From: Pseudomonadota bacterium | Lineage (GTDB): Bacteria; Pseudomonadota; Alphaproteobacteria; Micropepsales; Micropepsaceae | Reading direction: 5' to 3' | Assembly (NCBI GenBank): GCA_041178445.1 | Contig: JBEGVG010000064.1 | Span: 34 to 64,033 of the forward strand | DNA: 64,000 nt | Shown: piece after piece, positions 6,216 to 62,723 of the stretch | How positions within the stretch are numbered: the first letter of the stretch is position 1 | Layout of the letters: every line of letters begins with the position of its first letter | The notes under the pieces: generated by a model | The model's database searches: none | Seen by the model: the letters and a program-made list of their open reading frames with translations, nothing else | What the model was told of the DNA's origin: nothing | Translations under genes and position numbers: made by a program

Positions 6216-8141
6216 TTATTCGAGGATCGGACGGAACGCCCCATCCCAGTCCGCACCCGGTGGATGTCTTTCGAAATAGGCGATCCGCGTCAGATGCAGG
6301 TCGTACATTTTCTGGCTGGCGCCTGACAGGCGGCGCCACTGAGCGATCAACTCGCGCGCCATCTGCCATTGCTGCTTGCGGATGGCCTGGAAGATATGAT
6401 CGTGAAACACGGTCAAGGCGCGGAACTTGGGCGAGGCGCGATACACCGACGAACCCATGATGGCATAAAGCGTGGTGGCCGGACCACTGGCGCCGACCGC
6501 GATGGAGTCAATCTCCAGAAAGGCAAAGCCGCGTTCGGCGGCGCGCTTGGTGTCTTCGGCCGCGATCAGCGCCGGGCCATATTGATGCGACAGCGCCTGG
6601 ACATGGCCCGCCATCGTCACCGCGCCGCCATGAACGCTGTAGCCCATCCGGCCATAGCCGCCGAACCCGCCGGCAATGACCTGGCCGCTGGCGATGCCGA
6701 TGCCGATCTCCACCAGCGGCGGCGCATCGGGCCCGCGATATTCCTGCGCCAGTTCCTCGTTGACGCGCGCTGCCATGATCGCCATGCCATTGGCCGCCTC
6801 GCAGGCATGCAGCGCATGGTCGCCATCATCCAGCGGCGCGTTCCAGAAGGCGGCGAAGCCATCGGCGGTCAGCCGGTCGATGGTGCCGCCATGCGCCAGC
6901 GCCTGGTCGATCAGCGGCGTCAGCACTTTCTGCATCAGGCGCGTGAAACCGGCGGCGTCGTTGTGATAATCCGCCGCCAGCCCCGAAAGGCCGCGCACGC
7001 CGCACACCAGATAGGTGACGGTGCGGATTTCGCCGTCGAGATTGAGCAGGGCCGGGCGGCGCGCGATCTTCTCGATGGTGGCGCGCGGCAGAGAGTCCGA
7101 AAACGCCATGCGCAAGCCGGCATAGGCCATGCGCAGATCCTGGATATAGGCCGCCGCGCCCGCGCCAAAGGCCAGCATCAGGGCCAGCGCCGGACTGGCC
7201 GCATCCATCAACAGACCCTGCTGCATGAAGAGATACCAGGACAGCGCGAACAGCGCGGCGCCGCCGCCCATCGCCAGGCCCGCCGCCCAGCCCAGGCCGA
7301 AGCGCAGCAGGAAAATCATGATCCCGCCCAGCACCAGCAGAGCTGCGGCTTCGGCCACCATCATCCAGCCGGGCCGCTGCAGCACATCGCGCACCAGAAG
7401 ATTGCCGATCGCTTCGGCCGTCACGCCGGCAAGGCTGGCGGCACCGAAAGGCGTCTTCACCATCGCGCCCTGTTGTCCCACCACCACGATCATGTCTTTC
7501 AGCGGTATGGCGTCCAGCGCATTGGGATTGAGAATCTGTTCGGACATGTTGGCCGCGTAGCGCAGCCAGAAGCGTCCGTCGCTGCCCGTGGGAATGATCC
7601 CGCCATCCGTTTCCAGCGCCGCGATGCCCACGCCGGCAAAGAAGCTCAGCGGATTGCGTTCATCGCTGATGACCGTGATGTCGGGCTTGCGCTGCGCCAC
7701 CCGCAAGGCTTCCGCCGTCATCCCCGGCACCAGCATGGCGTCCACCCGCACCGCCAAAGCGGCGCGGCGCACCACGCCGTCGGCATCGGGCATCAGGGCG
7801 GCGGCGGCCGATCCCGCCGCATGCGTTTCCAGCAGCGCCAGCGGCGCGGCGGCGGAGTCATGGCGCGGGACCTTGGAAAAGGGATCGCGGCTGCCGCGAT
7901 AGACAAAGCGCGCCTTGATGCGGGGGGCGCGTCCTTCGGCCCCCAGCGTCACCGGCACGATGCCGTCAATGTTCTGCAGCGCCACGGCAAGGCCGTGTCC
8001 GGGCTCGGGCAGTTGGGCCAGCGCGGCGCGTGCCGCCTTGTCACCGGGCGGCAGTTTGGCCGAAAGGCTTTGCGGGGAGGGCCCGTGTTGTAGGGGGGCG
8101 GTGAATACCACCAGCCGTGCGCCGGCCAGAAGGCGCGTCAC
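6216..8141 (-). CDS. CHASE2-domain membrane protein with degenerate class III adenylate/guanylate cyclase domain
   Basis: DADGVVRR CHASE2 motif, TM helices, GGTID...FWNAPLDD, IGIGIASG; start (GTG) uncertain and N-terminus looks truncated. Confidence 0.8.
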   Translation of the reverse strand: MTRLLAGARLVVFTAPLQHGPSPQSLSAKLPPGDKAARAALAQLPEPGHGLAVALQNIDGIVPVTLGAEGRAPRIKARFVYRGSRDPFSKVPRHDSAAAPLALLETHAAGSAAAALMPDADGVVRRAALAVRVDAMLVPGMTAEALRVAQRKPDITVISDERNPLSFFAGVGIAALETDGGIIPTGSDGRFWLRYAANMSEQILNPNALDAIPLKDMIVVVGQQGAMVKTPFGAASLAGVTAEAIGNLLVRDVLQRPGWMMVAEAAALLVLGGIMIFLLRFGLGWAAGLAMGGGAALFALSWYLFMQQGLLMDAASPALALMLAFGAGAAAYIQDLRMAYAGLRMAFSDSLPRATIEKIARRPALLNLDGEIRTVTYLVCGVRGLSGLAADYHNDAAGFTRLMQKVLTPLIDQALAHGGTIDRLTADGFAAFWNAPLDDGDHALHACEAANGMAIMAARVNEELAQEYRGPDAPPLVEIGIGIASGQVIAGGFGGYGRMGYSVHGGAVTMAGHVQALSHQYGPALIAAEDTKRAAERGFAFLEIDSIAVGASGPATTLYAIMGSSVYRASPKFRALTVFHDHIFQAIRKQQWQMARELIAQWRRLSGASQKMYDLHLTRIAYFERHPPGADWDGAFRPILE

Positions 8142-8898: not shown

Positions 8899-8999
8899 GA
8901 ACCGAGCGCGGTTTTTAGGGATGGGGGCTGGGGCCGTCAAGCCAGCCCAAGATTTTCAGGCTTTTCGGACCAAGTTCCTGCCGCTACAAGGGAATCACC

Positions 9000-9296
9000 A
9001 TGATGATGAACCCAATCGCCGCCCTGCTGATCCAGGTCCTGGAAATCTACAAATGGATCCTGATCGCCTCCGTGATCGTGAGCTGGCTCACCGCCTTCAA
9101 CGTCATCAATGTCCATAACAATTTCGTCCGCAGCCTGCTGCACATCCTGCAGGCGCTGACCGAACCGGTGCTGGCGCCCATCCGCCGCATCCTGCCCGCA
9201 ATGGGGGGGCTGGACCTGTCGCCCATCGTGGTTTTCGTGCTGATCTGGTTCCTGCAATATACGATCCGCTGGGCGTCGTTTAACTACGGGCTATAG
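9000..9296 (+). CDS. yggT: YggT family membrane protein
   Basis: SWL, LTEPVLAPIRRILP.MGGLDLSPIV. Confidence 0.92.
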   Translation: MMMNPIAALLIQVLEIYKWILIASVIVSWLTAFNVINVHNNFVRSLLHILQALTEPVLAPIRRILPAMGGLDLSPIVVFVLIWFLQYTIRWASFNYGL

Positions 9297-10919: not shown

Positions 10920-12293
10920 ATGACCCGGGGCTTTGCCCAGGGTGCGGGCGGCGGCCGCCGGGTGCGCCTGCGCACCCTGTCCAACCTGCGCTGGCTGGCG
11001 ATTGTCGGCCAGTCGGTCGCTTTGTTCCTGGTCTATTTCGCGCTCGGCTATCCCTTGCCGATTGTCCATTGCGCACTGGCCATCGCCGTCAGCGCCGCGC
11101 TCAATGTCGTGCTGGCGCTGCGCTATCCCGCCGCCCATCGCCTGACCAACCGCGAAGCCACATTCTATCTGGCCTTTGACGTGCTGCAGCTGGCGGCGCT
11201 GCTCTATCTCACCGGCGGCCTGGCCAATCCCTTTGCGCTGATGTTCTTGGGCCCGGTGGTGATCGCCGCCACCACGCTCAATCTGGGCAATGTACTGATC
11301 CTGGCTTTCATCGCCTTTGCCTCGGTGTCGGTGATCGCCATCGAACATCAACCGCTGCCCTGGCCGGCAGGCGATGTCCTGATACTGCCCCAGCTTTATC
11401 AGGCGGGCATCTGGACCGCGCTGGTGATCGGCATTGGTTTCACATCGGTTTATGCCTGGCGAATCGCATCGGAATCGGCACGCATGTCGGCGGGGCTTGC
11501 CGCCACCCAACTGGCACTATCGCGCGAGCATCGGCTGGCGGCGCTGGGCGCGCTGGCCACGGCGGCGGCGCATGAGCTGGGCACGCCGCTGGGCACCATC
11601 GCGGTGGTGGCGCGCGAGCTGGAACGCGCCCTGCCGGAAAATTCCGCCGAGATCGAGGATGTGCGCCTTTTGCGGGCCCAGGCCGAACGCTGCCGCGCCA
11701 TCATCGCCCGTCTTGCCAATCCGGAAGAGGCGCTGCTGGGCGCCACCGCGCGTCTGCCGCTGGGCGCCCTTCTGGACGATATCGCCGCGCCCCATCGCGG
11801 CGAGGATCTGGAAATTCTTGTCACTGTCGCAACGCCGCCCTCTTCTGGAACAATGGGCGATGCGCCGGCGCCGCAAGTGTGGCGTGCGCCCGAACTGCTG
11901 CACGGATTGGGGAACATCATCGAGAATGCCGCCGACTTCGCCCACTCTCTGGTGGCGGTGCATGCCGAGTGGGACGACCAGACCCTGCGCATTTCCGTGA
12001 CCGATGACGGCCCCGGCTTTGCGCCCGAAATCTTCGAGGCACTGGGCGAGCCCTACATCACCTCGCGCCCCGGCCATCATGCGCTGTCCGAAACCGAGAT
12101 CGGCCCGCAAGGCGCGCTGGACGAACATGAAGGCATGGGGCTAGGCTTCTTTATCGCCAAAATCCTGCTGGAACAGACCGGCGGCGTGGTTAAGGCCGAC
12201 AATCCCCCGGGCGGTGGGGCGCAGGTTTCGGTGCGCTGGCCCCGGGGTGTAATCGATGGGGCGCAGCCTCCGGCCCAGAACGAGCCGGCCTGA
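10920..12293 (+). CDS. regB: Redox sensor histidine kinase RegB/PrrB/ActS
   Basis: RLRTLSNLRW, GGLANPF quinone motif, AAHELGTPL, ERCR. Confidence 0.95.
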   Translation: MTRGFAQGAGGGRRVRLRTLSNLRWLAIVGQSVALFLVYFALGYPLPIVHCALAIAVSAALNVVLALRYPAAHRLTNREATFYLAFDVLQLAALLYLTGGLANPFALMFLGPVVIAATTLNLGNVLILAFIAFASVSVIAIEHQPLPWPAGDVLILPQLYQAGIWTALVIGIGFTSVYAWRIASESARMSAGLAATQLALSREHRLAALGALATAAAHELGTPLGTIAVVARELERALPENSAEIEDVRLLRAQAERCRAIIARLANPEEALLGATARLPLGALLDDIAAPHRGEDLEILVTVATPPSSGTMGDAPAPQVWRAPELLHGLGNIIENAADFAHSLVAVHAEWDDQTLRISVTDDGPGFAPEIFEALGEPYITSRPGHHALSETEIGPQGALDEHEGMGLGFFIAKILLEQTGGVVKADNPPGGGAQVSVRWPRGVIDGAQPPAQNEPA

Positions 12294-12868: not shown

Positions 12869-13773
12869 GCGTTCGCTGTCGCCGTCTGCGCAATCCGCGA
12901 CGGTTTTTTCCACAAAGCGGGTGCGCCCCGGATAAGTCCCACCGCCAGAAGCATGGTCGCGGCGCCCGCGATCATGTCCATCAGATAGTGCCCGCCAAAG
13001 AAGGGTACGGATGCCAGCATCACCAGATTGAGCGCGGCGATCATCCAGCCCGCGGGACCGGTGCCGCGGAAGGCCCAGATGTAAGCCAGCGCCATGGCGG
13101 TGTGGAAAGACGGAAAACTTACCACGCCCGTCATGCCTGACAGGGCAAAGCGAAGATTCTCCCCGCTCAGGATATGCTCCATCACCGGCACGAAGCCGGT
13201 ATGGGTTGCGATATTGTATAGCTTCGATGGCCCCGGAGCGGGGAGCAGCAATGTGCCGGCACAGGCCATCAGACCGCACAGCCCGAACATCCAGAACATT
13301 TCGCGTAAGCGATCCTTGCGCCCCATCACCGCCAGCAGCACGCCGAAATACAGGCCCTGATACACCAGGCTGTGATAGGCAAAGCCCAGCACGCTCTTGA
13401 GCATGGGATGCTGTTCCACGAAGCGATAGCCGGCGAGCCAGTCGAACCCCAGCACCTGATCCATCGCCATCAGCCGCGCGTCCACCAACGGCCCCGCGGA
13501 CGCCAGGCAGAGATAAGACAAGGCACAAATGGCGGTCGAGGAGATCAGGGTCAGCCCGAAATACTCGGCCATCAACGCGCCCCTGGTCAGACGCGAAAGC
13601 TGCAGACCCAGCGTGAGGGCGAAAATCAGCGACGGCAGCAGGAAGTCGTTACGGGTGACGGTAAATTCCAGCGGGATACGCAACGCCCAGACGGCGTCCA
13701 GCACGATGAGCGCGCTGACCGCGCACCATTCTGGCACAAATTCGCTTCCAAGCCTGTGTTTCAGCCCCGTCAT
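12865..13773 (-). CDS. PAP2-family membrane phosphoesterase (AUR1/PAP2_3-like)
   Basis: PAPGP, VSFPSFHT, GGHYLMD. Confidence 0.85.
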   Translation of the reverse strand: MTGLKHRLGSEFVPEWCAVSALIVLDAVWALRIPLEFTVTRNDFLLPSLIFALTLGLQLSRLTRGALMAEYFGLTLISSTAICALSYLCLASAGPLVDARLMAMDQVLGFDWLAGYRFVEQHPMLKSVLGFAYHSLVYQGLYFGVLLAVMGRKDRLREMFWMFGLCGLMACAGTLLLPAPGPSKLYNIATHTGFVPVMEHILSGENLRFALSGMTGVVSFPSFHTAMALAYIWAFRGTGPAGWMIAALNLVMLASVPFFGGHYLMDMIAGAATMLLAVGLIRGAPALWKKPSRIAQTATANA

Positions 13774-14640: not shown

Positions 14641-14647
14641 ATCACTA

Positions 14648-14740
14648 TCACCATGGGCGGCCTTGAGCCGCCCATCCAGAGTCAAAGGCTCGATTTCAGT
14701 TTGAAGTTCTGGATGGCCGGGTCAAGGCCGGCCATGGTGA
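14648..14740. repeat. REP-like doublet (CCATGG...ATCCAG / CTGGAT...CCATGG)
   Basis: TCACCATGGGCGGCCTTGAGCCGCCCATCCAG ... CTGGATGGCCGGGTCAAGGCCGGCCATGGTGA. Confidence 0.85.
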
Positions 14741-14746
14741 GGGTGG

Positions 14747-14812
14747 TTACAAGCTGCCCTTCGAAGACGGCGACGCGCCGTCCAATCGTTCGTCGGGCGT
14801 AATGGCCTGGCG
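14747..14812 (-). pseudogene. Displaced, synonymously divergent copy of the last 22 codons of hisB
   Basis: Encodes [21 protein letters not shown], identical to the hisB C-terminus; 56/66 nt identical to 14861-14926. Confidence 0.93.
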
Positions 14813-14860
14813 CCCCGCGAGCGGAGGCGAGCAAAAATAATGCTTTGCGACAGGCCAGCG

Positions 14861-15448
14861 TTACAGGCTGCCTTTGGAGGAGGGAGACGCGCCGTCCAAG
14901 CGTTCATCCGGCGTTATGGCCTGGCGCAAAGCCCGCGCCAGACCCTTGAAGCAGGTCTCGACGATGTGATGGCTGTTGTCGGCATACAGATTCTCGATGT
15001 GGAGGCACGCGCCGGAATTCTGGGCGAAGGCCTGGAACCATTCCTTGAACAGCTCGGTGTCCATCTCCCCCAGCTTGGGCTTGGGGATCGTCACCTTCCA
15101 GATCAGATAGGGGCGGTTGGACAGGTCCAGCGCCACGCGGGTCAGGGCCTCGTCCATCGGGATCAGGGCCGAGCCGAAACGGGTAATGCCGGAAAAATCG
15201 CCCAGCGCCTGTTTCACCGCCTGGCCGATGACGATCGCGGTGTCCTCGGTGGTGTGGTGATAGTCGACATGCAGGTCGCCGGTGGCGCGCACTTTCAGGT
15301 CGATCATGGAATGGCGCGCGAAGCTTTCCAGCATATGGTCCAGGAACCCGATGCCGGTATCGATATCGGCATCGCCGGCCCCGTCCAGGTCGAGGGAGAC
15401 GGCTATCTCGGTCTCGCGGGTCTTTCGTTCGACGGTGGCGGTGCGCAT
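14861..15448 (-). CDS. hisB: Imidazoleglycerol-phosphate dehydratase
   Basis: [33 protein letters not shown]. Confidence 0.97.
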
Positions 15449-15465
15449 TCGGTCTCTTTCAGCAG

Positions 15466-15567
15466 CTCAGGCCCGCCTCCCCATCGTGCGCGTCAGCGCA
15501 CAAGAGGGGAGGTGGTTTCAGCGATCGAGGCGCGCCAAGCGCCGAGAGGAAGCTGAAACCGGAGGGG
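15466..15567 (-). repeat. CCCCTCC...GGGGAG palindromic intergenic element, copy A
   Basis: Reverse complement shares CCCCTCCGGTTTCAGCTT, GCTGAAACCACCTCCCC and GGGGAGGCGGnCCTGAG with 16912-17007. Confidence 0.88.
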
Positions 15568-15628
15568 AAAATCGAACAAACCGCTGTATAGCACGGGTTT
15601 CGGGGTGGGGAATCCCCTGTGGCGCCAG

Positions 15629-16905: not shown

Positions 16906-16911
16906 AGCGAC

Positions 16912-17007
16912 CCCCTCCGGTTTCAGCTTTCGCGAAGCTTCGCTTCGCACGCTGAAACCACCTCCCCCTCAGATGCGCTGCGCGCATGAAGGGGAGGCGG
17001 ACCTGAG
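16912..17007 (+). repeat. CCCCTCC...GGGGAG palindromic intergenic element, copy B (inverted relative to copy A)
   Basis: Same stems as 15466-15567, different loop sequences. Confidence 0.88.
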
Positions 17008-54836: not shown

Positions 54837-55490
54837 ATGAAAATCTTCCTCGACACCGCCGATGTGGCGGAAATCCGCGAATATGCCGCCAGCGGCCTGG
54901 TCGATGGCGTCACCACCAATCCCAGCCTCGCCGCCAAGACGGGCCGCGATTATGTCGAATCGCTGAAGGAAATCTGTTCGGTGGTGCCCGGCGCGGTGAG
55001 CGGCGAGGTGCTGGCCACCGACTATGACGGCATGATGAAGGAAGCGGCGATCCTGACCAAGATCGCCAAGAACATCGCGGTGAAAGTGCCGCTGACCTGG
55101 GACGGGCTGAAGGCCTGCGCCGCGCTGGCCAAGGACGGCACCATGGTCAATGTCACGCTGTGCTTCTCGCCGGTGCAGGCCTGGATGGCCGCCAAGGCGG
55201 GCGCGACGTTCATTTCGCCCTTCATCGGCCGCGTCGATGATGCGGGCGAAGACGGTATGGGACTGATCCGCGATATCCGCACCGTCTATGACAATTACGG
55301 CTTCAAGACGGAAATCCTGGCGGCTTCGATCCGCAGCATCAGCCATGTGCGCGAGTCGATTCTGGCGGGCGCCGATGTCGGCACCATGCCGAGCGACATT
55401 TTCAAGAAGCTGATCAGCCATCCCTTGACCGACAAGGGCCTGGCCGCCTTTGTCGCCGACGCCAAAAAGGCCAATGTCGTCATAAAGTGA
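54837..55490 (+). CDS. tal: Transaldolase / fructose-6-phosphate aldolase (TalC/Fsa family)
   Basis: FLDTA, GVTTNPS, VKVP, NVTLCFS, ISPFIGR. Confidence 0.9.
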
Positions 55491-56404
55491 GCGAAAGCGC
55501 CGACACGCTTCGCAAAAGCTGGCTTTCGATGCTGGCGCATGAGCGGCGCGCTTCGCCCAACACCTTGCGCGCTTACGGCGATGACGTGGCGCGCTTCATC
55601 GGTTTCCAGGCGCAGCATGTCGGCGGGGCGGTGACGGCCAAGGCGCTGGCCAAGCTGAAGCCCGCAGACATCCGCGCCTTTGTTTCCAGCCGCCGCAGCG
55701 AAGGCTTGGGCGCGGGCGGGGTGCAGCGGGCGCTGGCGGCGGTGCGCAGCTTCTACAAATTCCTCGCCCGCGAAGGCATCCTGGAGAATGCCGCCGCTCG
55801 GTCCATCCGCACCCCGCGCGTGCGCCGTCCGCTGCCGCGCCCGCTGACGGCGGTGGATGCGGCGCGCGCCATCGAGGAAGCCGGCGAACATAATGTGGAA
55901 TGGCTGGGGGCCCGCGATGCGGCGCTGCTGACGCTGCTCTATGGCGCGGGCCTGCGCATTTCCGAGGCGCTGGGCCTCAAGCGCGGCGACGTGCCGCTGG
56001 GCGAAAGTCTGACGGTGGTCGGCAAGGGCCGCAAGGAACGCAGCGTGCCGATGCTGCCTTTGCTGCGCGAAGCGCTGCAGACTTATGCCGACAAGATTCC
56101 CTTCACCGGGGCGCCGTCCTCGCCGCTGTTCCTGTCGCGGCGGGGCCTGCCGATGAGCGCGCGCGAGGCGCAAGGCTTGATGCAGAAACTGCGCGGGCGC
56201 TTGGGTTTGCCCGAAAAGGCCACGCCCCATGCCCTGCGCCATTCCTTCGCCACCCATATCCTGCAAGGCGGCGGCGACCTTCGCAGCGTGCAGGAATTGC
56301 TGGGGCATTCCTCGCTCTCCACCACCCAGATCTACACCGCGATCGAGACCAGCCAGCTGCTGAAAACCTACGAAAATGCGCATCCCAGAGCCCGGCGTGG
56401 CTGA
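55487..56404 (+). CDS. xerC: Chromosomal tyrosine recombinase XerC
   Basis: [41 protein letters not shown]. Confidence 0.9.
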
Positions 56405-57809: not shown

Positions 57810-57885
57810 GCCGCCTTAGCTCAGTCGGTAGAGCATCGCATTCGTAATGCGGGGGTCGCCAGTTCGAGTCTGGCAGGCGGCACCA
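57810..57885 (+). tRNA. tRNA-Thr (CGT)
   Basis: GCCGCCTTAGCTCAGTCGGTAGAGCATCGCATTCGTAATGCGGGGGTCGCCAGTTCGAGTCTGGCAGGCGGCACCA. Confidence 0.97.
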
Positions 57886-57960
57886 TTCAATTGCCCCGCA
57901 AAGCGGGTCAATTGAATGACAAGCGGCGGCTAGCGTCAGCGTAGCGCCGCCGCGCGTCAG

Positions 57961-57986
57961 TGCCCGCGAGAAATCGCGGGCTTTTT
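57961..57986 (+). terminator. Terminator after tRNA-Thr (third of three hairpins)
   Basis: GCCCGCGA-GAAA-TCGCGGGC-TTTTT. Confidence 0.75.
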
Positions 57987-57989
57987 AAT

Positions 57990-59213
57990 GCCAAGCCCAT
58001 CACAAAGTGAAATGAGCATTTAGCAAGCTCCATAGTGGCGGGGGTTCGAAATCATGACCTAGCGCTTTAGCAGATATGAGGTGAAGCTTAGGCACGGGCG
58101 TGGAGTCGGGTAGTACGTGTCTAATGAAGGGGGCGGCAGATGGCGCAATTCTCGTCAGAGCAAATAGCGACAAATATAAAGAACGAATCAATATTTTGTC
58201 CGCACACTCGTTACCTTAGAGAAAAGAAGCAGCAAAGCGACAATCCGCCTTCGACTCCGGCCGGTGCTGAGCAAGGCACCTTTGTACACTATACATCTGC
58301 GGAAGCGGCCCTTCAGATCATCAGAGATAAGCGTCTCTGGATGAGAAACACGACGTGTATGGCGGACTACAGCGAGGTACAGCGCGGCTACTCGATTCTT
58401 AGAACTTCTTCCGTGCGAATGACAGCGAGAACATGAAGCGTCTAATCGCTGTGACTGATGTTATACAGCCAGGCTTGGCGGTCAATGCTGTGCAAGTGTT
58501 CGATCAGCTGTGGAATAAGCATCGCTACCAGATATACATAACTTCCGTTGCTGAACATGATCGAGTCACGGAGGACGTCAACGGCCGCCCCTCAATGTGG
58601 CGCGCTTTCGGAGCAACTCCGCGTGTGGCCCTAACTTTTTCCATTCCATGGAGCTCATCTGCGACACATGCATTGAAAATAATGTTCAATCCTGTGAGCT
58701 ACCTTGATGAAGCAGGTGCATATGCAGATCTAAATGCTGCTATAGGCAATATTGAGCGCGAAACTGAGTACTTGAAGAGCCGTCCGCCCGAGGAGGTCCA
58801 TGGGTGGGTGTTTCAGATGCTGCTGACAGCAGTCTGTTGCATTAAGCACGAAGGCTTTTCAGAAGAGCGAGAATGGCGAGGCGTATACTCTCCATTTTTC
58901 GGTAGTGGGCGGCCATCAGAAACGTCGGCGTTGGAGAAAAGTTTGAAAGTGATCCAAGGCGTACCTCAAACTGTCTATCAGATACCGCTCGACGTATCGG
59001 TTAGTGCCGGACTTGAAGACTTGGATATGGTGCGCTGTTTGCGCAAAATTATTATAGGCCCGACATCGTATCCATGGGTGATGTACGAGGCGTTCGTCGA
59101 GGCATTGACGGACCTAAAGGCTCCAGACCCTACCAGCATGGTGGCCGTCACCTCCTTGCCGCTCAGAGGATAATTCTGCGGGCCTTAGTTTATCTTCCGC
59201 GTTGCCACAACAC
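57990..59213. mobile_element. AT-richer islet at the tRNA-Thr 3' end; no integrase or att repeat seen
   Basis: Abrupt shift to A/T-ending codons and lower GC than the flanks (judged by eye). Confidence 0.55.
58140..59173 (+). pseudogene. DUF2971-domain gene, frameshifted near 58401-58404
   Basis: HYTSAEAA..I...LWMRN...MADYSE in frame 1; SMWRAFG, KHEGFSEEREWR, IIIGP in the -1 frame. Confidence 0.75.
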
Positions 59214-59281
59214 CTAACGCGCCAGCAGATCAGACCTGAGCTGGGATTTCACGATCGGTGCCTTGCCGCTCTGGCTGTGCT
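59214..59281 (-). pseudogene. Decayed copy of the 3' end of the 60398-62572 gene
   Basis: 39/43 nt identical to 60398-60440 including the TAG, then continued similarity with a net 9-nt deletion. Confidence 0.85.
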
Positions 59282-59287
59282 CAGCAC

Positions 59288-60367
59288 CTACGTCTCCGTG
59301 AACAGCCCCGTCTTGGGCGGCACCGGCAATTTCACCTTCAGCACATCGCGCATGTAGCGCACGCTGGCCGCGATATTATCGTCCACGCTGCCGGTGCCAT
59401 CGCCGGGGCGGGGCGCGTCGATGTCGAACACCGTCCAGCCCTTCCAGCGCCGCTTGCGCAGCACCGCGAACACGCCGGGAAAATCCACGCCGCCGCCCTG
59501 GCCGACCGAGGCATAGACACTTTTGACGCGGTGCTGCGCCTGGGTCGGGGTGGCCTTGTTGCCGCGATATTCCGGAAACGTGTCCTTCAAATGGAATTCG
59601 GCGATTCTGGGCAGGAACTCATCGGTGATCTTCACCACATCCATGCCGCCCAGCACATTGTGGCCGGTGTCCAGGCAGAGGAAGACATAGCGCGGATCGG
59701 TCAATTCCATCACCCGGCGAAATTCGTGTTCGCGCTCCATCGGCCCCCAGGTGTGGGGATGCAGGGCAAGCTTGACGCCATAGGGCAGGGTGCGCCGCCC
59801 GATCTCATTGGCGGTGTCCGCCAACCCTTTGAGCTGGTCGTCGCTGGGGCCGTTCGGCGGGCGGCCGCCCATATTGTTCTTCCACGGCACGATGCCCAAA
59901 GGCTGCAGCAGATCGCGGGCGCTGGCTTCCATCTCCGCTATCAGCTGCTTGCTGCCTTCGCCGCCCAGCCAGGGATAGGCACCCGCATCATTGGCGGCGG
60001 CCGGCGCGCCGGCGGGGCGGGGACGACGGGCCAGCCCGCCGACGCTGACCGGCGTTATGCCGATTTCGTCATACAGCTTCTTCAGCGCCATGGGATTGTC
60101 GAGCCACTGCGTCACCTGGCCGGGATAGGGCTCAAAGCCTTCCAGCCCGTAATGCCGGCAGTCTTCCAGCATCATGCGCATATTGCTCGACATCCGCATC
60201 GAGGTGGCACCGGGGGGCCAGACGCCGAAGATCGAACCGGTGGTGCCGAACCCGATATCGGGATTGACGGGATCGAGGCCCTTGGGCGCCGCGAAAGCGG
60301 AGCCCGCCGCGCACAGCCCGGCGACTGCAACTGTCGAGCTAAGAAAATCGCGTCTGGTGCTGGTCAT
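59288..60367 (-). CDS. Tat-exported sugar-phosphate isomerase/epimerase-like TIM barrel (AP_endonuc_2/IolE family)
   Basis: TRRDFL Tat signal, LHPHT, LCLDTGHN, FHLKD; GGAGGGG RBS. Confidence 0.82.
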   Translation of the reverse strand: MTSTRRDFLSSTVAVAGLCAAGSAFAAPKGLDPVNPDIGFGTTGSIFGVWPPGATSMRMSSNMRMMLEDCRHYGLEGFEPYPGQVTQWLDNPMALKKLYDEIGITPVSVGGLARRPRPAGAPAAANDAGAYPWLGGEGSKQLIAEMEASARDLLQPLGIVPWKNNMGGRPPNGPSDDQLKGLADTANEIGRRTLPYGVKLALHPHTWGPMEREHEFRRVMELTDPRYVFLCLDTGHNVLGGMDVVKITDEFLPRIAEFHLKDTFPEYRGNKATPTQAQHRVKSVYASVGQGGGVDFPGVFAVLRKRRWKGWTVFDIDAPRPGDGTGSVDDNIAASVRYMRDVLKVKLPVPPKTGLFTET

Positions 60368-60397
60368 GGTGTTTCCCCTCCGTTTTTATTTTTTTGA

Positions 60398-62572
60398 CTA
60401 TCGCGCCAGCGGATCAGGCCTGAGCTGGAATTTCACGATCTTGCTGGTGGTGCCCTTGCCGCCCTCGATGTGCTGCGGGGCGCGGGTCGCATAGGTGGAC
60501 CACAGGCCCTTGCCTTTCCAGCCCTTGCCCGGATCGTCGATGCGCCCGTCCAGCCCCTTGGCGTAAAAGCCCATTGGATAGGGCACGCGCAGGGTGACGA
60601 ACTTGCCGTCCTTCAGCGCCAGCAGCGCGTCGGAGGCATTGCCGGTGGCGATCGGCACATCGTTGCCCAGACCGAACGTGTCCTGCTGATCCACCCAGGC
60701 GTAATAGCTGGATTCCACGCTGCCCGGCGCGTTCACGCCCTTGAATTGCGGTCCGGGGAAGGGATACATCGTCCACCCCTCGGGACAATGATGGCCCGTC
60801 GCCTTGGGCCCGTTCAGTGGCCCCTTGCACTTGCGCCGGTCGAAGCTGGCGAACTGGCCGCTGGACAAGGACACCCAGGCGACACCATTGCTGTCGATAT
60901 CCATGCCGCGCGGCCCATAGCCCTTGGCCGCGGCTTTCGGGTCGTCGACCGGGACATAGAAGATTTCCGCGATCGCCGTCTCGGGCGGGTTCTTGCCCGG
61001 CGCGAGGCGCTGGACGCCGCCGTTCGGATAGCCCAGGAACGAGCCCCAGATCGCGCCGTCCTTCGGGCTGATCGCCACGGCGTAATATCCCGCGCGCACC
61101 CGCATGTCCTTGCCCGGCTCCTGCGGCTGGCCCGGCTCGGTATATTCGCCGCGCTTGCCGTCGCCATTGGTGTCCAGGATCAGCGCCGTCCAGCCCTGCG
61201 ACTTCTGTTCGTCGCCGGTTTCCAGATACATCTTGCTGTTCAGCCAGCCGATCACATCGCCGCCGCCGCTGGTCCATAGCGTGTTGTTCGCGTCATAGGC
61301 GAAGTTGAGATGATGGGTGCTGTAGCAGGTGTCGATCAGCGAGAATTTCTTGGTCTTAAGATAGTACACCGCCAGATTGCGCCCGGTGGTCTGGGTGGGG
61401 AACAGCTTGGCGGAAGGATGCGAGGAACCCGCGCGGCAGAAGGCCGGCGTCTCGGGGGCGCGGATGCGCTGGGTCAGCCACACCCGTCCGTCCTGGTCGA
61501 ACATCGGATTGTGGATGTTGGTCTGGCTGTCCCAGATCGGCGTGTTGCCCCAATAGGGCGAGGGCGCCGGAATCACATTGTTCTTGGTGGTGGGGGTATT
61601 GGCGTCGCGGGCCGGGGCCTTGACCATGGTGGCGACGTGCTTGGTGGGGTCCAGCACCGGAATGAAGTCGGTGCTTTCCTCTGCCGCGCCATAGAGCGGG
61701 CCATAGGCATTGACCCGCGGATTGCGCCGGTCGGTGGCGATTTCATCATGCAGATAGGCGGTGGGGCTGTGCCAGTCCCACAATGTCACCACGACATTGC
61801 GCTCGATTCCTTGCGGGCGGGGCGGCTTGGCGAAGGGTAGCTCGCCCTTCCGGACCCGGTCGGTCCAGTCGCCGAACAGCGCCAAGGCCCGCTGGGTATC
61901 CAGCCGGCCGATGCCGTTGATCATGGAATTGCCGGCCTGTCCCACCTGGATGCGATGCTCCCAGGCTTCGGCGGATGTCTTGAACTTGCCCAGCGCCGGC
62001 AGGTAATCGCGCGTGGCTTCATTGCCCAGCTGGTGACAGGTGAAGCAGCCATTGGTCTTGACCACGTCCAGCCACTGGGCCTGGCTTTTCATCTTGGGGT
62101 CCATGCCATTGCCCTGCGGCTTGGGCCCGGTGCCGGGAAATTCATTCGCCGCCGGAATCCCCAGCATGGCGTACCAGTACATCGCGGGATAATAGCGCGC
62201 CGCCGCCGCGTCATTGGGCGCGGGCACCGCCTTCAGGGTCAGCATCTTGCCCGGCGCCGACGTCACTTTGGGGGAATCCACCAACCCATAACCCCGCACC
62301 CAGATGGAGTAGCTGGCGCGCGGCAGATCGGGAATCAGAAAGCGCCCCTGATCGTCGGTCACCACGATCTTGGCATACTTGGTGGGAAGGTCCTTGGTCT
62401 CGGCGATGACCCAGACCCCGGCTTCGGGGCCTTTGGCGCCCGTGACGGTGCCGCCGATATCATCGCCGTCTATGGCGGGGGTGTTCTGCGCGGTGCCCGG
62501 CGCAACGGCGAACCAGAATGCGGCGGCCGCGCCCGCGGCCAGTGATCCACCCAACAGGAATCTTTTTCTCAT
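60398..62572 (-). CDS. Secreted protein: carboxypeptidase-regulatory-like N-domain, one CxxCH motif, beta-propeller-like repeats
   Basis: Signal peptide, GVWVIAET...VTDDQGRF..PDLP, NGCFTCHQ, repeated DG.VW motifs. Confidence 0.75.
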   Translation of the reverse strand: MRKRFLLGGSLAAGAAAAFWFAVAPGTAQNTPAIDGDDIGGTVTGAKGPEAGVWVIAETKDLPTKYAKIVVTDDQGRFLIPDLPRASYSIWVRGYGLVDSPKVTSAPGKMLTLKAVPAPNDAAAARYYPAMYWYAMLGIPAANEFPGTGPKPQGNGMDPKMKSQAQWLDVVKTNGCFTCHQLGNEATRDYLPALGKFKTSAEAWEHRIQVGQAGNSMINGIGRLDTQRALALFGDWTDRVRKGELPFAKPPRPQGIERNVVVTLWDWHSPTAYLHDEIATDRRNPRVNAYGPLYGAAEESTDFIPVLDPTKHVATMVKAPARDANTPTTKNNVIPAPSPYWGNTPIWDSQTNIHNPMFDQDGRVWLTQRIRAPETPAFCRAGSSHPSAKLFPTQTTGRNLAVYYLKTKKFSLIDTCYSTHHLNFAYDANNTLWTSGGGDVIGWLNSKMYLETGDEQKSQGWTALILDTNGDGKRGEYTEPGQPQEPGKDMRVRAGYYAVAISPKDGAIWGSFLGYPNGGVQRLAPGKNPPETAIAEIFYVPVDDPKAAAKGYGPRGMDIDSNGVAWVSLSSGQFASFDRRKCKGPLNGPKATGHHCPEGWTMYPFPGPQFKGVNAPGSVESSYYAWVDQQDTFGLGNDVPIATGNASDALLALKDGKFVTLRVPYPMGFYAKGLDGRIDDPGKGWKGKGLWSTYATRAPQHIEGGKGTTSKIVKFQLRPDPLAR

Positions 62573-62723
62573 GTCCGTTTTCCGCCATGAGTTCACGCGG
62601 CTCCATGGCCGCGCGCGGACCCTAGCACTTTGGCTTGAAATTTCAGAGTCCCGGCGCACCGGAAACAGGCTGTGCGACTTGCCCGGCCTGACAGCCTGTC
62701 GCTAACTAGGGGCGGGGAAATGG

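Follow-up and report, generated by a model that had tools for sequence, protein, structure and literature searches.

A displaced gene tail points to insertion of a single foreign TIM-barrel gene behind a stop codon in an alphaproteobacterium

A gene tail on either side of a TIM-barrel gene

How does a gene come to lie between two copies of the 3′-end of its neighbor? The question is raised by a locus in a 64,000-nt stretch of DNA (hereafter the window; positions 34 to 64,033 of contig JBEGVG010000064.1, forward strand, GenBank assembly GCA_041178445.1) from a Pseudomonadota bacterium of the family Micropepsaceae. Its genome, G000, is a 2.49-Mb metagenome-assembled genome (MAG) that is 97%-complete and lies in 128 contigs. 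On the minus strand of the window, a gene for a secreted 724-aa protein, P0001 (60398-62572), is followed by a gene for a 359-aa TIM-barrel protein, TIM (59288-60367), and TIM is followed by a second, degraded copy of the P0001 end. We distinguish the functional end of P0001 (live tail, or tail B; 60398-60485, minus strand), which the repeat search, gapped alignment, and translation delimit as the last ~29 codons and TAG, from the displaced and decaying copy (relic, or tail A; 59214-59285, minus strand, TAG included). The junction of the live P0001 end with the TIM leader is J1, and that of the TIM stop with the relic, at 59286-59287, is J2. With moderate confidence, we read the scar as the horizontal insertion of a single gene.

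The original prediction had described a 39/43 match, stop codon included, between 59214-59281 and the end of P0001, and the repeat search and the alignment agree on it. In the repeat search of the window, the similarity falls into two ungapped blocks, 59214-59256 versus 60398-60440 (39/43) and 59261-59281 versus 60454-60474 (18/21, offset by 9 nt), and a gapped alignment carries the homology on to ~59285/60482 (AGCAC), 2-3 nt from the TIM stop at 59288-90. The duplication itself stands, but the ~70 bp originally given for it does not: the duplicated target is ~87 bp long, with the relic starting 2-3 nt after the TIM stop and the repeat ending 1-2 nt past the P0001 stop, so that it covers the last ~29 codons and the stop. 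The similarity has E = 8e-11 when the tail is compared with the 2.49-Mb genome and 2e-9 in an all-versus-all self-comparison. The tail sequence is present in just two copies in the whole of G000 and is thus no dispersed repeat. Between the copies lie the TIM open reading frame (ORF) and a 30-nt spacer with a ribosome-binding site (TCAAAAAAATAAAAACGGAGGGGAAACACC; 60368-60397, minus strand) and nothing else, as first described from the ORF list. This spacer is the native 5′ untranslated region (UTR) of TIM, and J1 marks its upstream edge, 0-2 nt past the P0001 stop. The target-side sequence is CGCAGCAC at the joint after the TIM stop and TAGG before the TIM leader.

The relic is 80-91% identical to the live tail, with indels. 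Two gaps of 4 and 5 nt account for the net 9-nt deletion that had been reported, and there are ~10 substitutions over ~76 aligned bases, 9 of them missense and 1 silent. Translated in the tail frame, the relic reads AEHSQSGKAPIVKSQLRSDLLAR and the live tail PQHIEGGKGTTSKIVKFQLRPDPLAR, each ending in TAG, and these translations agree with the earlier account of three missense changes in four (F>S, P>S, and P>L). The affected residues (F, P, and P) are invariant or nearly so across the P0001 family. The relic contains no ORF of any length in the ORF list or in translation, and it has no Rfam match and no terminator. For the 111 nt that follow TIM, predicted folding is not better than for shuffled sequences (z = +0.59), and neither tail copy shows an RNA family, terminator, promoter, or stable fold. 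From its sequence, the relic appears to be without function and to be eroding through missense changes and deletions. The view that the downstream copy is decaying thus holds: almost all of its changes are missense at family-invariant residues, and the corresponding relic in a relative, L038 (ENA ERZ27315062), carries other, larger deletions.

P0001, as delimited by translation (an alternative GTG start lies at 62659), ends in ...IVKFQLRPDPLAR and TAG, and TIM starts 30 nt later. Its only Pfam match is a weak N-terminal one to CarboxypepD_reg (PF13620); it has no Pfam family of its own, no NCBIfam match, and no PDB sequence match. A confident AlphaFold2 model with a predicted local distance difference test (pLDDT) score of 87.6 contains a CarboxypepD_reg-like β-sandwich, a helical CxxCH heme-c domain, and a β-propeller, the last matched in Foldseek by propellers of the virginiamycin B lyase and NHL/lactonase types. 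On this model, P0001 is predicted to be a periplasmic heme/propeller protein. The family comprises more than 8000 proteins at E ≤ 1e-100 in Proteobacteria, Acidobacteriota, and Gemmatimonadota, uncharacterised and with no solved relative. Invariant positions include C176, C179, and H180 of the CxxCH motif, the cysteines C379, C416, C582, and C596, and many Trp and Asp positions. The tail itself holds the invariant residues R718, P719, P721, and A723 (RPxPxA motif) behind a modelled terminal β-strand (710-717), and is predicted to be structurally important. P0001 is under purifying selection (dN/dS of 0.011/0.136, or 0.08, for the pair of G000 and L038). It is an accessory gene, carried by 3/24 sampled genomes of the genus, and an ordinary member of its local clade, 87-96% identical to its relatives throughout. 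Its 3′ third is mosaic (60600-61100), with patches closer to the allele of another relative, L039 (OW818643.1; 92-95%), than to that of L038 (85-91%), which suggests short recombination patches.

The cargo gene encodes a Tat-signal, xylose-isomerase-like TIM barrel of the AP_endonuc_2 family (PF01261; 1.1e-21, 78.1 bits versus a cut-off of 31.1, residues 68-340). More distant matches (TIGR04379/IolE and PDB entries 3cny and 8ro4) place it as distant kin of IolE and 2-hydroxy-3-keto-glucal hydratase. Its leader is A-rich and contains GGGGAAAC(A/G)CC, a feature also found upstream of the TIM orthologs L014-L018. The leader core, GGAGGGGAAACACC, is common to TIM orthologs elsewhere, and the C-terminus (...GLFTET and stop) is native to the TIM family. 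Because leader and C-terminus are both native, the insert can be delimited as ~1115 bp running from the native 5′ UTR to ~3 nt past the stop. TIM is also under purifying selection (dN/dS of 0.011/0.093, or 0.12, against L038). We found no promoter-like site upstream of TIM on the minus strand, and no terminator either between P0001 and TIM or after TIM on that strand, so TIM would most likely be co-transcribed with P0001, as the second gene of a new operon. In several members of the genus, TIM is the third gene of an operon with a PQQ-dehydrogenase and an NHL-lactonase-like gene, and by analogy the P0001-TIM pairing would resemble the usual company of TIM, periplasmic sugar-oxidising propeller enzymes, with a putative functional link.

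Empty and filled alleles of the locus

If TIM was inserted, relatives should carry the locus with one tail and without 59282-60397, as the original prediction had anticipated. Such alleles exist: nine related P0001 alleles have a single tail and no TIM (G023, or L040; L039; L041, or CAMCWK01; L042-L044; and L210-L212). The alleles of G023, L039, and L041 are also syntenic on the side of a tRNA-Thr gene and the GSDH-like gene that lies beyond it. G023, the closest genome-level relative (87% DNA identity), has the same GSDH, tRNA-Thr, terminator, and P0001 genes and features, with a convergent MFS transporter gene alone between terminator and P0001 and a single P0001 tail behind it. L039 carries an MFS gene and 580 bp in that interval, and L041 a PDC-M28B-like ParA/TPR gene and an MqsA-type antitoxin. 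L042-L044 and L210-L212 (the latter at 90-92% identity) have yet other downstream genes. Adjacency of P0001 and TIM was found at 0/76 P0001 loci from GTDB genomes, 0/19 TIM loci from the genus, and 0/80 metagenome TIM loci (0/175 in all). Across all searches made, which also took in 120 genus genomes and a set of 5.8 billion proteins, the pair occurs only in G000 and L038.

The L038 allele is 96.4% identical to that of G000 over 4.7 kb that include P0001 and TIM, and the homology runs through both genes to 59277. It has the same J1 and J2. Its relic shares the first bases (TAGG.GC.GAGCAC) and CCAGCTCAGG with that of G000 and has lost ~30 and ~6-20 nt elsewhere, which shows that the relic has eroded independently in the two lineages. 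Downstream of the L038 relic there is a type II restriction-modification pair and no counterpart of the DUF2971 islet that follows in G000. From the shared junctions and relic, we conclude that the insertion happened once, before G000 and L038 split and after their lineage had left those of L039, L041, and G023.

The flanks show which of the two tails stands where the original one stood. Behind the relic stop, an 11-nt sequence (GGTGTTGTGGC; 59203-59213, minus strand) matches what follows the P0001 stop in TIM-less alleles (GGCGTTGTGAC in L039, GGCGGTTGGCC in L210/L211), and the L038 relic is followed by a related remnant of the same flank. The live-tail stop is followed by the TIM leader, the ancestral flank sitting behind the relic stop instead. 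It is the relic, then, that appears to retain the original context of the P0001 end. The live tail has 92-94% identity with its counterparts in L041, L211, L038, and L039, and live tail and relic share synonymous states that G023 does not have. These shared states, together with the ordinary standing of P0001 in its clade and the divergence of TIM, indicate that the tail was not imported along with TIM.

TIM has a different history. In an IQ-TREE phylogeny of 95 TIM sequences, G000 and L038 form a pair with 100/100 support on a long stem (0.28), apart from the clade of the G023 TIM. The closest sequence other than that of L038 reaches 76-79% aa identity at most in the genus genomes and in the metagenome and 5.8-billion-protein searches. 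In G023, TIM is flanked by a TauE-like gene and an MR_MLE gene. In G000, it is a different gene, of 55% GC, that lies between the orthologs of these two (85-89% DNA identity) on contig C8 (4475-5836), which indicates that TIM was lost there and that a xenolog is carried beside P0001. The comparison of sequences thus suggests that the native TIM of G000 was lost or replaced and a foreign TIM gained. By eye, the C8 gene at this site is acetamidase/formamidase-like.

Proposed joining of the TIM gene to the P0001 stop codon

In the explanation that we favor, the locus in the common ancestor of G000 and L038 would have read P0001, stop, GGCGTTGTGGC..., variable cargo, terminator, and tRNA-Thr. A promoterless fragment of ~1.1 kb, carrying a foreign TIM from its own 5′ UTR to ~3 nt past its stop, would have been inserted at the very 3′-end of P0001, with its two joints ~87 bp apart in the target and in overlapping order. 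Owing to that spacing and order, fill-in would have duplicated the last ~29 codons and the stop (plus 1-2 nt). The upstream copy would leave P0001 intact and make TIM the second gene of a new operon, while the downstream copy would erode without function. Since the C-terminal strand and RPxPxA of P0001 are invariant in the family, only an outcome that preserved the tail would survive selection. For both ends, we envisage RecA-independent illegitimate joining of the microhomology type, or template switching, during the repair or replication of imported single-stranded DNA; G000 has ComEC and DprA.

Several dedicated routes of gene capture do not account for the scar. No integrase, transposase, or inverted repeats were found between or around the copies by Pfam scan and repeat search. 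Insertion of an insertion sequence or transposon is made unlikely by the lack of terminal inverted repeats and of a transposase, and by a duplication of ~87 bp versus the usual 2-15 bp. An integron cassette is unlikely as well, since no inverted repeat and no attC-like hairpin follows TIM (the fold z-score being that given above) and the upstream gene is an ordinary structural gene with no IntI/attI platform. An integrative element with its own integrase does not fit an interval that holds the TIM ORF and its 30-nt leader alone; a tyrosine recombinase gene at 55487-56404 lies outside the insert, and relatives that lack TIM have it too. Neither the genome nor the surroundings of 99 TIM homologs yielded another copy of the tail or of an element. 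Capture by nonhomologous end joining was rejected because no Ku was found in this 97%-complete MAG, and a reciprocal swap with the native TIM site because the gene on C8 is unrelated and G000 has no counterpart of the G023 MFS gene.

Several points weigh against a single insertion as we describe it. A target duplication of 87 bp with both joints illegitimate would be an unusual outcome, and we know of no measured frequency for long double-illegitimate duplications. The left joint, 0-2 nt from the stop, needs selection and luck, or else a two-step history. For the polarity, the argument is one of parsimony across ~10 alleles, and the gene concerned is accessory and lies where recombination occurs; the length of the TIM stem could also be due to rapid evolution once the gene had moved. 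Finally, microhomology at the joints could be read only in a donor, and none closer than ~76-79% aa was found for TIM.

The strongest competitor, which we nevertheless regard as unlikely, is such a two-step history through homology-facilitated illegitimate recombination (HFIR). P0001 and TIM would have been adjacent first, with no duplicated tail, and a linear fragment derived from a TIM-less strain and spanning GSDH and tRNA-Thr, the islet and flank, and P0001's final ~87 nt would later have joined homologously on the GSDH/tRNA side and, at its other end, illegitimately just after the TIM stop; the relic would then be an imported allelic tail. This would explain why the relic is followed by a natural post-stop flank. 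The interval downstream of P0001 has been swapped in every lineage examined, with seven different cargos, and TIM-less donors are the common type. The mosaic 3′ third of P0001 is in keeping with it, as are the spare tail of hisB elsewhere in the window, whose 10 all-silent differences are an HFIR signature, and the proposal of HFIR for displaced 3′-ends in type VI secretion system (T6SS) and Rhs loci (PMC5361080). The relic speaks otherwise: its synonymous states are those of the resident tail and its changes are 9:1 missense, with no sign of a separate functional history. Moreover, no P0001-TIM allele without a relic was found, and this history does not account for how TIM first came to lie precisely at the stop of P0001.

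Classical HFIR inside P0001 is improbable. Here a donor that already had P0001 and TIM side by side would have contributed the live tail, the relic would be the old tail of the recipient, and the illegitimate joint would lie ~87 nt before the stop. The topology yields exactly the observed order of tail, cargo, and displaced tail, and the patches in the P0001 3′ third that are closer to L039 than to L038 could be taken as traces of exchange, although the mosaicism is patchy and no single clean breakpoint marks an HFIR anchor in P0001. Such a donor would have to carry a pairing that none of the 175 loci shows, and the live tail and P0001 are ordinary for the local clade (87-96%), whereas TIM reaches at most 76-79% identity with anything known.

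Still less probable are two further readings, to which we attach about equal and very little weight. The first, raised by the original prediction as its alternative, is a former tandem paralog: P0001, TIM, and a second P0001 of which all was deleted save the last ~87 bp. Three tandem P0001 copies do occur in L052, a distantly related MAG from the Alphaproteobacteria, and some contigs of Acidobacteriota have partial copies in inverted orientation. A paralog search finds P0001 in single copy in G000, however, and none of the ~10 close alleles has a second; at the position of the relic none is seen in L038-L044 or L210-L212, and this alternative was dropped. It would also require TIM between the copies, a deletion whose end falls 2-3 nt past the stop of TIM, and more events in total. 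The relic, moreover, has the ancestral single-copy flank. The second is a site-specific mobile cassette that targets the P0001 3′-end and brings a replacement tail, so that the copies would be attL/attR-like repeats. The layout mimics that of 3′-end-targeting islands, and there are two other tail duplications in G000 (at hisB and at a CitMHS gene on contig C13), but the space between the copies holds one metabolic gene and no integrase, inverted repeats, or attC-like hairpin, the nearby tyrosine recombinase belongs to TIM-less relatives as well, TIM orthologs elsewhere lack such repeats, and the three duplicated tails share no motif. Chance similarity or an assembly artifact, which a MAG of 128 contigs might bring to mind, can be dismissed in view of the E-values, the colinear similarity that includes the stop, and the same junctions and relic in the independent assembly of L038.

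Insertion of a single gene, which remains our preferred reading, has relatives among known systems. The closest likeness is C-terminal displacement in Rhs, contact-dependent inhibition (CDI), and T6SS loci, where incoming DNA lands at the 3′-end of a gene that retains a functional terminus, while its former end is left downstream as an orphan (Jackson et al. 2009, BMC Genomics 10:584; Kirchberger et al. 2017, PMC5361080); displaced 3′-ends in Rhs/T6SS loci have been attributed to HFIR (PMC5361080). In those systems, what is displaced is an alternative toxin tip with its immunity gene, and arrays accumulate, whereas here the orphan is an 87-bp decaying end of the same allele type and the cargo is a PF01261 enzyme. 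An Rhs/CDI/T6SS array was rejected for this locus, since relic and live tail are of one type and the P0001 C-terminus is conserved across the family. HFIR and double illegitimate recombination during transformation are alike in that foreign DNA without mobile functions is integrated with no integrase or transposase; in those processes the joints lie at microhomologies, and ComEC and DprA are present here. They differ in that an anchor next to the cargo is seen in 0/175 contexts. In laboratory illegitimate events, recipient DNA is usually lost and not duplicated over ~87 bp. Both processes were reportedly described in natural transformation by de Vries and Wackernagel in 2002, by Prudhomme et al. 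in 2002, and by Meier and Wackernagel in 2003. Integrative islands that target 3′-ends also leave gene end, cargo, and displaced end, with the ends as direct repeats and the target intact, but this locus has no integrase, one cargo gene of 1.1 kb, repeats with no evident conserved att core, which decay could hide, and no other element copies.

The scar is thus of a known kind, in which recombination, illegitimate or one-sided, leaves the end of a gene displaced. What is unusual is that a single metabolic gene is docked at a stop codon, that the duplication is long, and that empty and filled alleles are both at hand. A foreign gene would in this way join an existing transcription unit without mobile machinery and without damage to the host gene, and the duplicated tail both dates and orients the event. 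Gene gain by illegitimate recombination is known mostly from laboratory transformation. If scars of the form tail, cargo, tail prove common, they could be used to count such gains in natural genomes; alone, the case of P0001 and TIM is a tidy example and no surprise.

The neighboring slot and other tail duplications

Downstream of the relic, the interval between the tRNA-Thr terminator and the P0001 end behaves as a replacement hotspot (58000-59213 in the window, L038:7147-9898, L041:7185-10587, L039:7215-9115, and L010:7705-9021). Its far border is conserved and consists of the tRNA-Thr(CGT) gene (57810-57885) and a terminator (57962-57981), on the plus strand (57810-57999 as a whole). Homology with G023, L038, and L039 stops at ~57999, and the left border of the slot falls in all cases at one and the same base behind the terminator (gccaagccca). 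In G000, ~65-75 nt (57886-57961), including a hairpin at 57884-57918, separate the terminator from the CCA end of the tRNA-Thr; they are absent in G023 and L038, where the terminator directly follows the tRNA-Thr. In G000 the slot holds a 1.2-kb variable islet of low GC content (~50%, versus 64% elsewhere; 58000-59202, plus strand), recognized by its composition and PF11185. Its two ORFs, 58140-58436 and 58433-59173, overlap at an ATGA junction and both contain DUF2971-like motifs, so that they may be a split or duplicated gene; neither has a PADLOC match. Besides the MFS genes of G023 and L039, the relatives carry in this slot a XamI-like restriction endonuclease with an Eco57I-like methyltransferase (the type II pair of L038), the PDC-M28B-like ParA/TPR gene and MqsA of L041, a TPR protein (L211), and an acyltransferase (L212). 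The slot resembles the minimal mobile elements (MMEs) of Neisseria and other small variable segments flanked by conserved genes, with varying small cargo that is largely of defense type (Touzain et al. 2010, PMC2884548). This likeness concerns the islet beside the relic and not the insertion of TIM, since flank replacement creates no duplicated tail.

Two other tail duplications were noted in G000. At the end of hisB (14747-14926), there are two copies of the last 22 codons, separated by 114 bp; the 10 differences between them are silent without exception, which implies a diverged functional allele as the source of the spare tail. The original prediction had equated the architecture at TIM with that at hisB; the layout is indeed the same, but the kind is not, the TIM-side copy appearing to have decayed within its own lineage. 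In G063, hisB runs directly to the next gene and has one tail. On contig C13, the end of the CitMHS gene (...PMIVMVWM and stop) is repeated 3 kb downstream by a convergent MR_MLE gene (8982-9054 and 12032-12098; L195:3983-4055 and 7033-7099), and the cargo comprises a PLD-type (cardiolipin-synthase-like) gene, a DUF6675 fragment, and a palindrome at 9093-9190 (also at 13429-13527) that resembles a miniature inverted-repeat transposable element (MITE). The CitMHS transporter gene has no DNA match in the five relatives searched. With P0001/TIM, hisB, and CitMHS, there are three tail scars in 2.5 Mb, for which no shared motif or enzyme was found; palindromic repeats of ~100 nt adjoin two of them. 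We think it doubtful, though worth stating, that G000 and perhaps its genus run a recurrent, recombinase-independent docking of DNA behind stop codons that duplicates 60-90 bp each time; if true, this would be a general route for plugging promoterless foreign genes into existing transcription units. The spare copy of hisB is followed by one of the palindromic dispersed repeats (~100 nt; 14645-14745). Repeats of this type, similar to repetitive extragenic palindromes (REPs) and MITEs, also lie in the intergenic regions at 15465-15570 and 16910-17000, and occur in dozens of copies on both strands in every genus genome searched.

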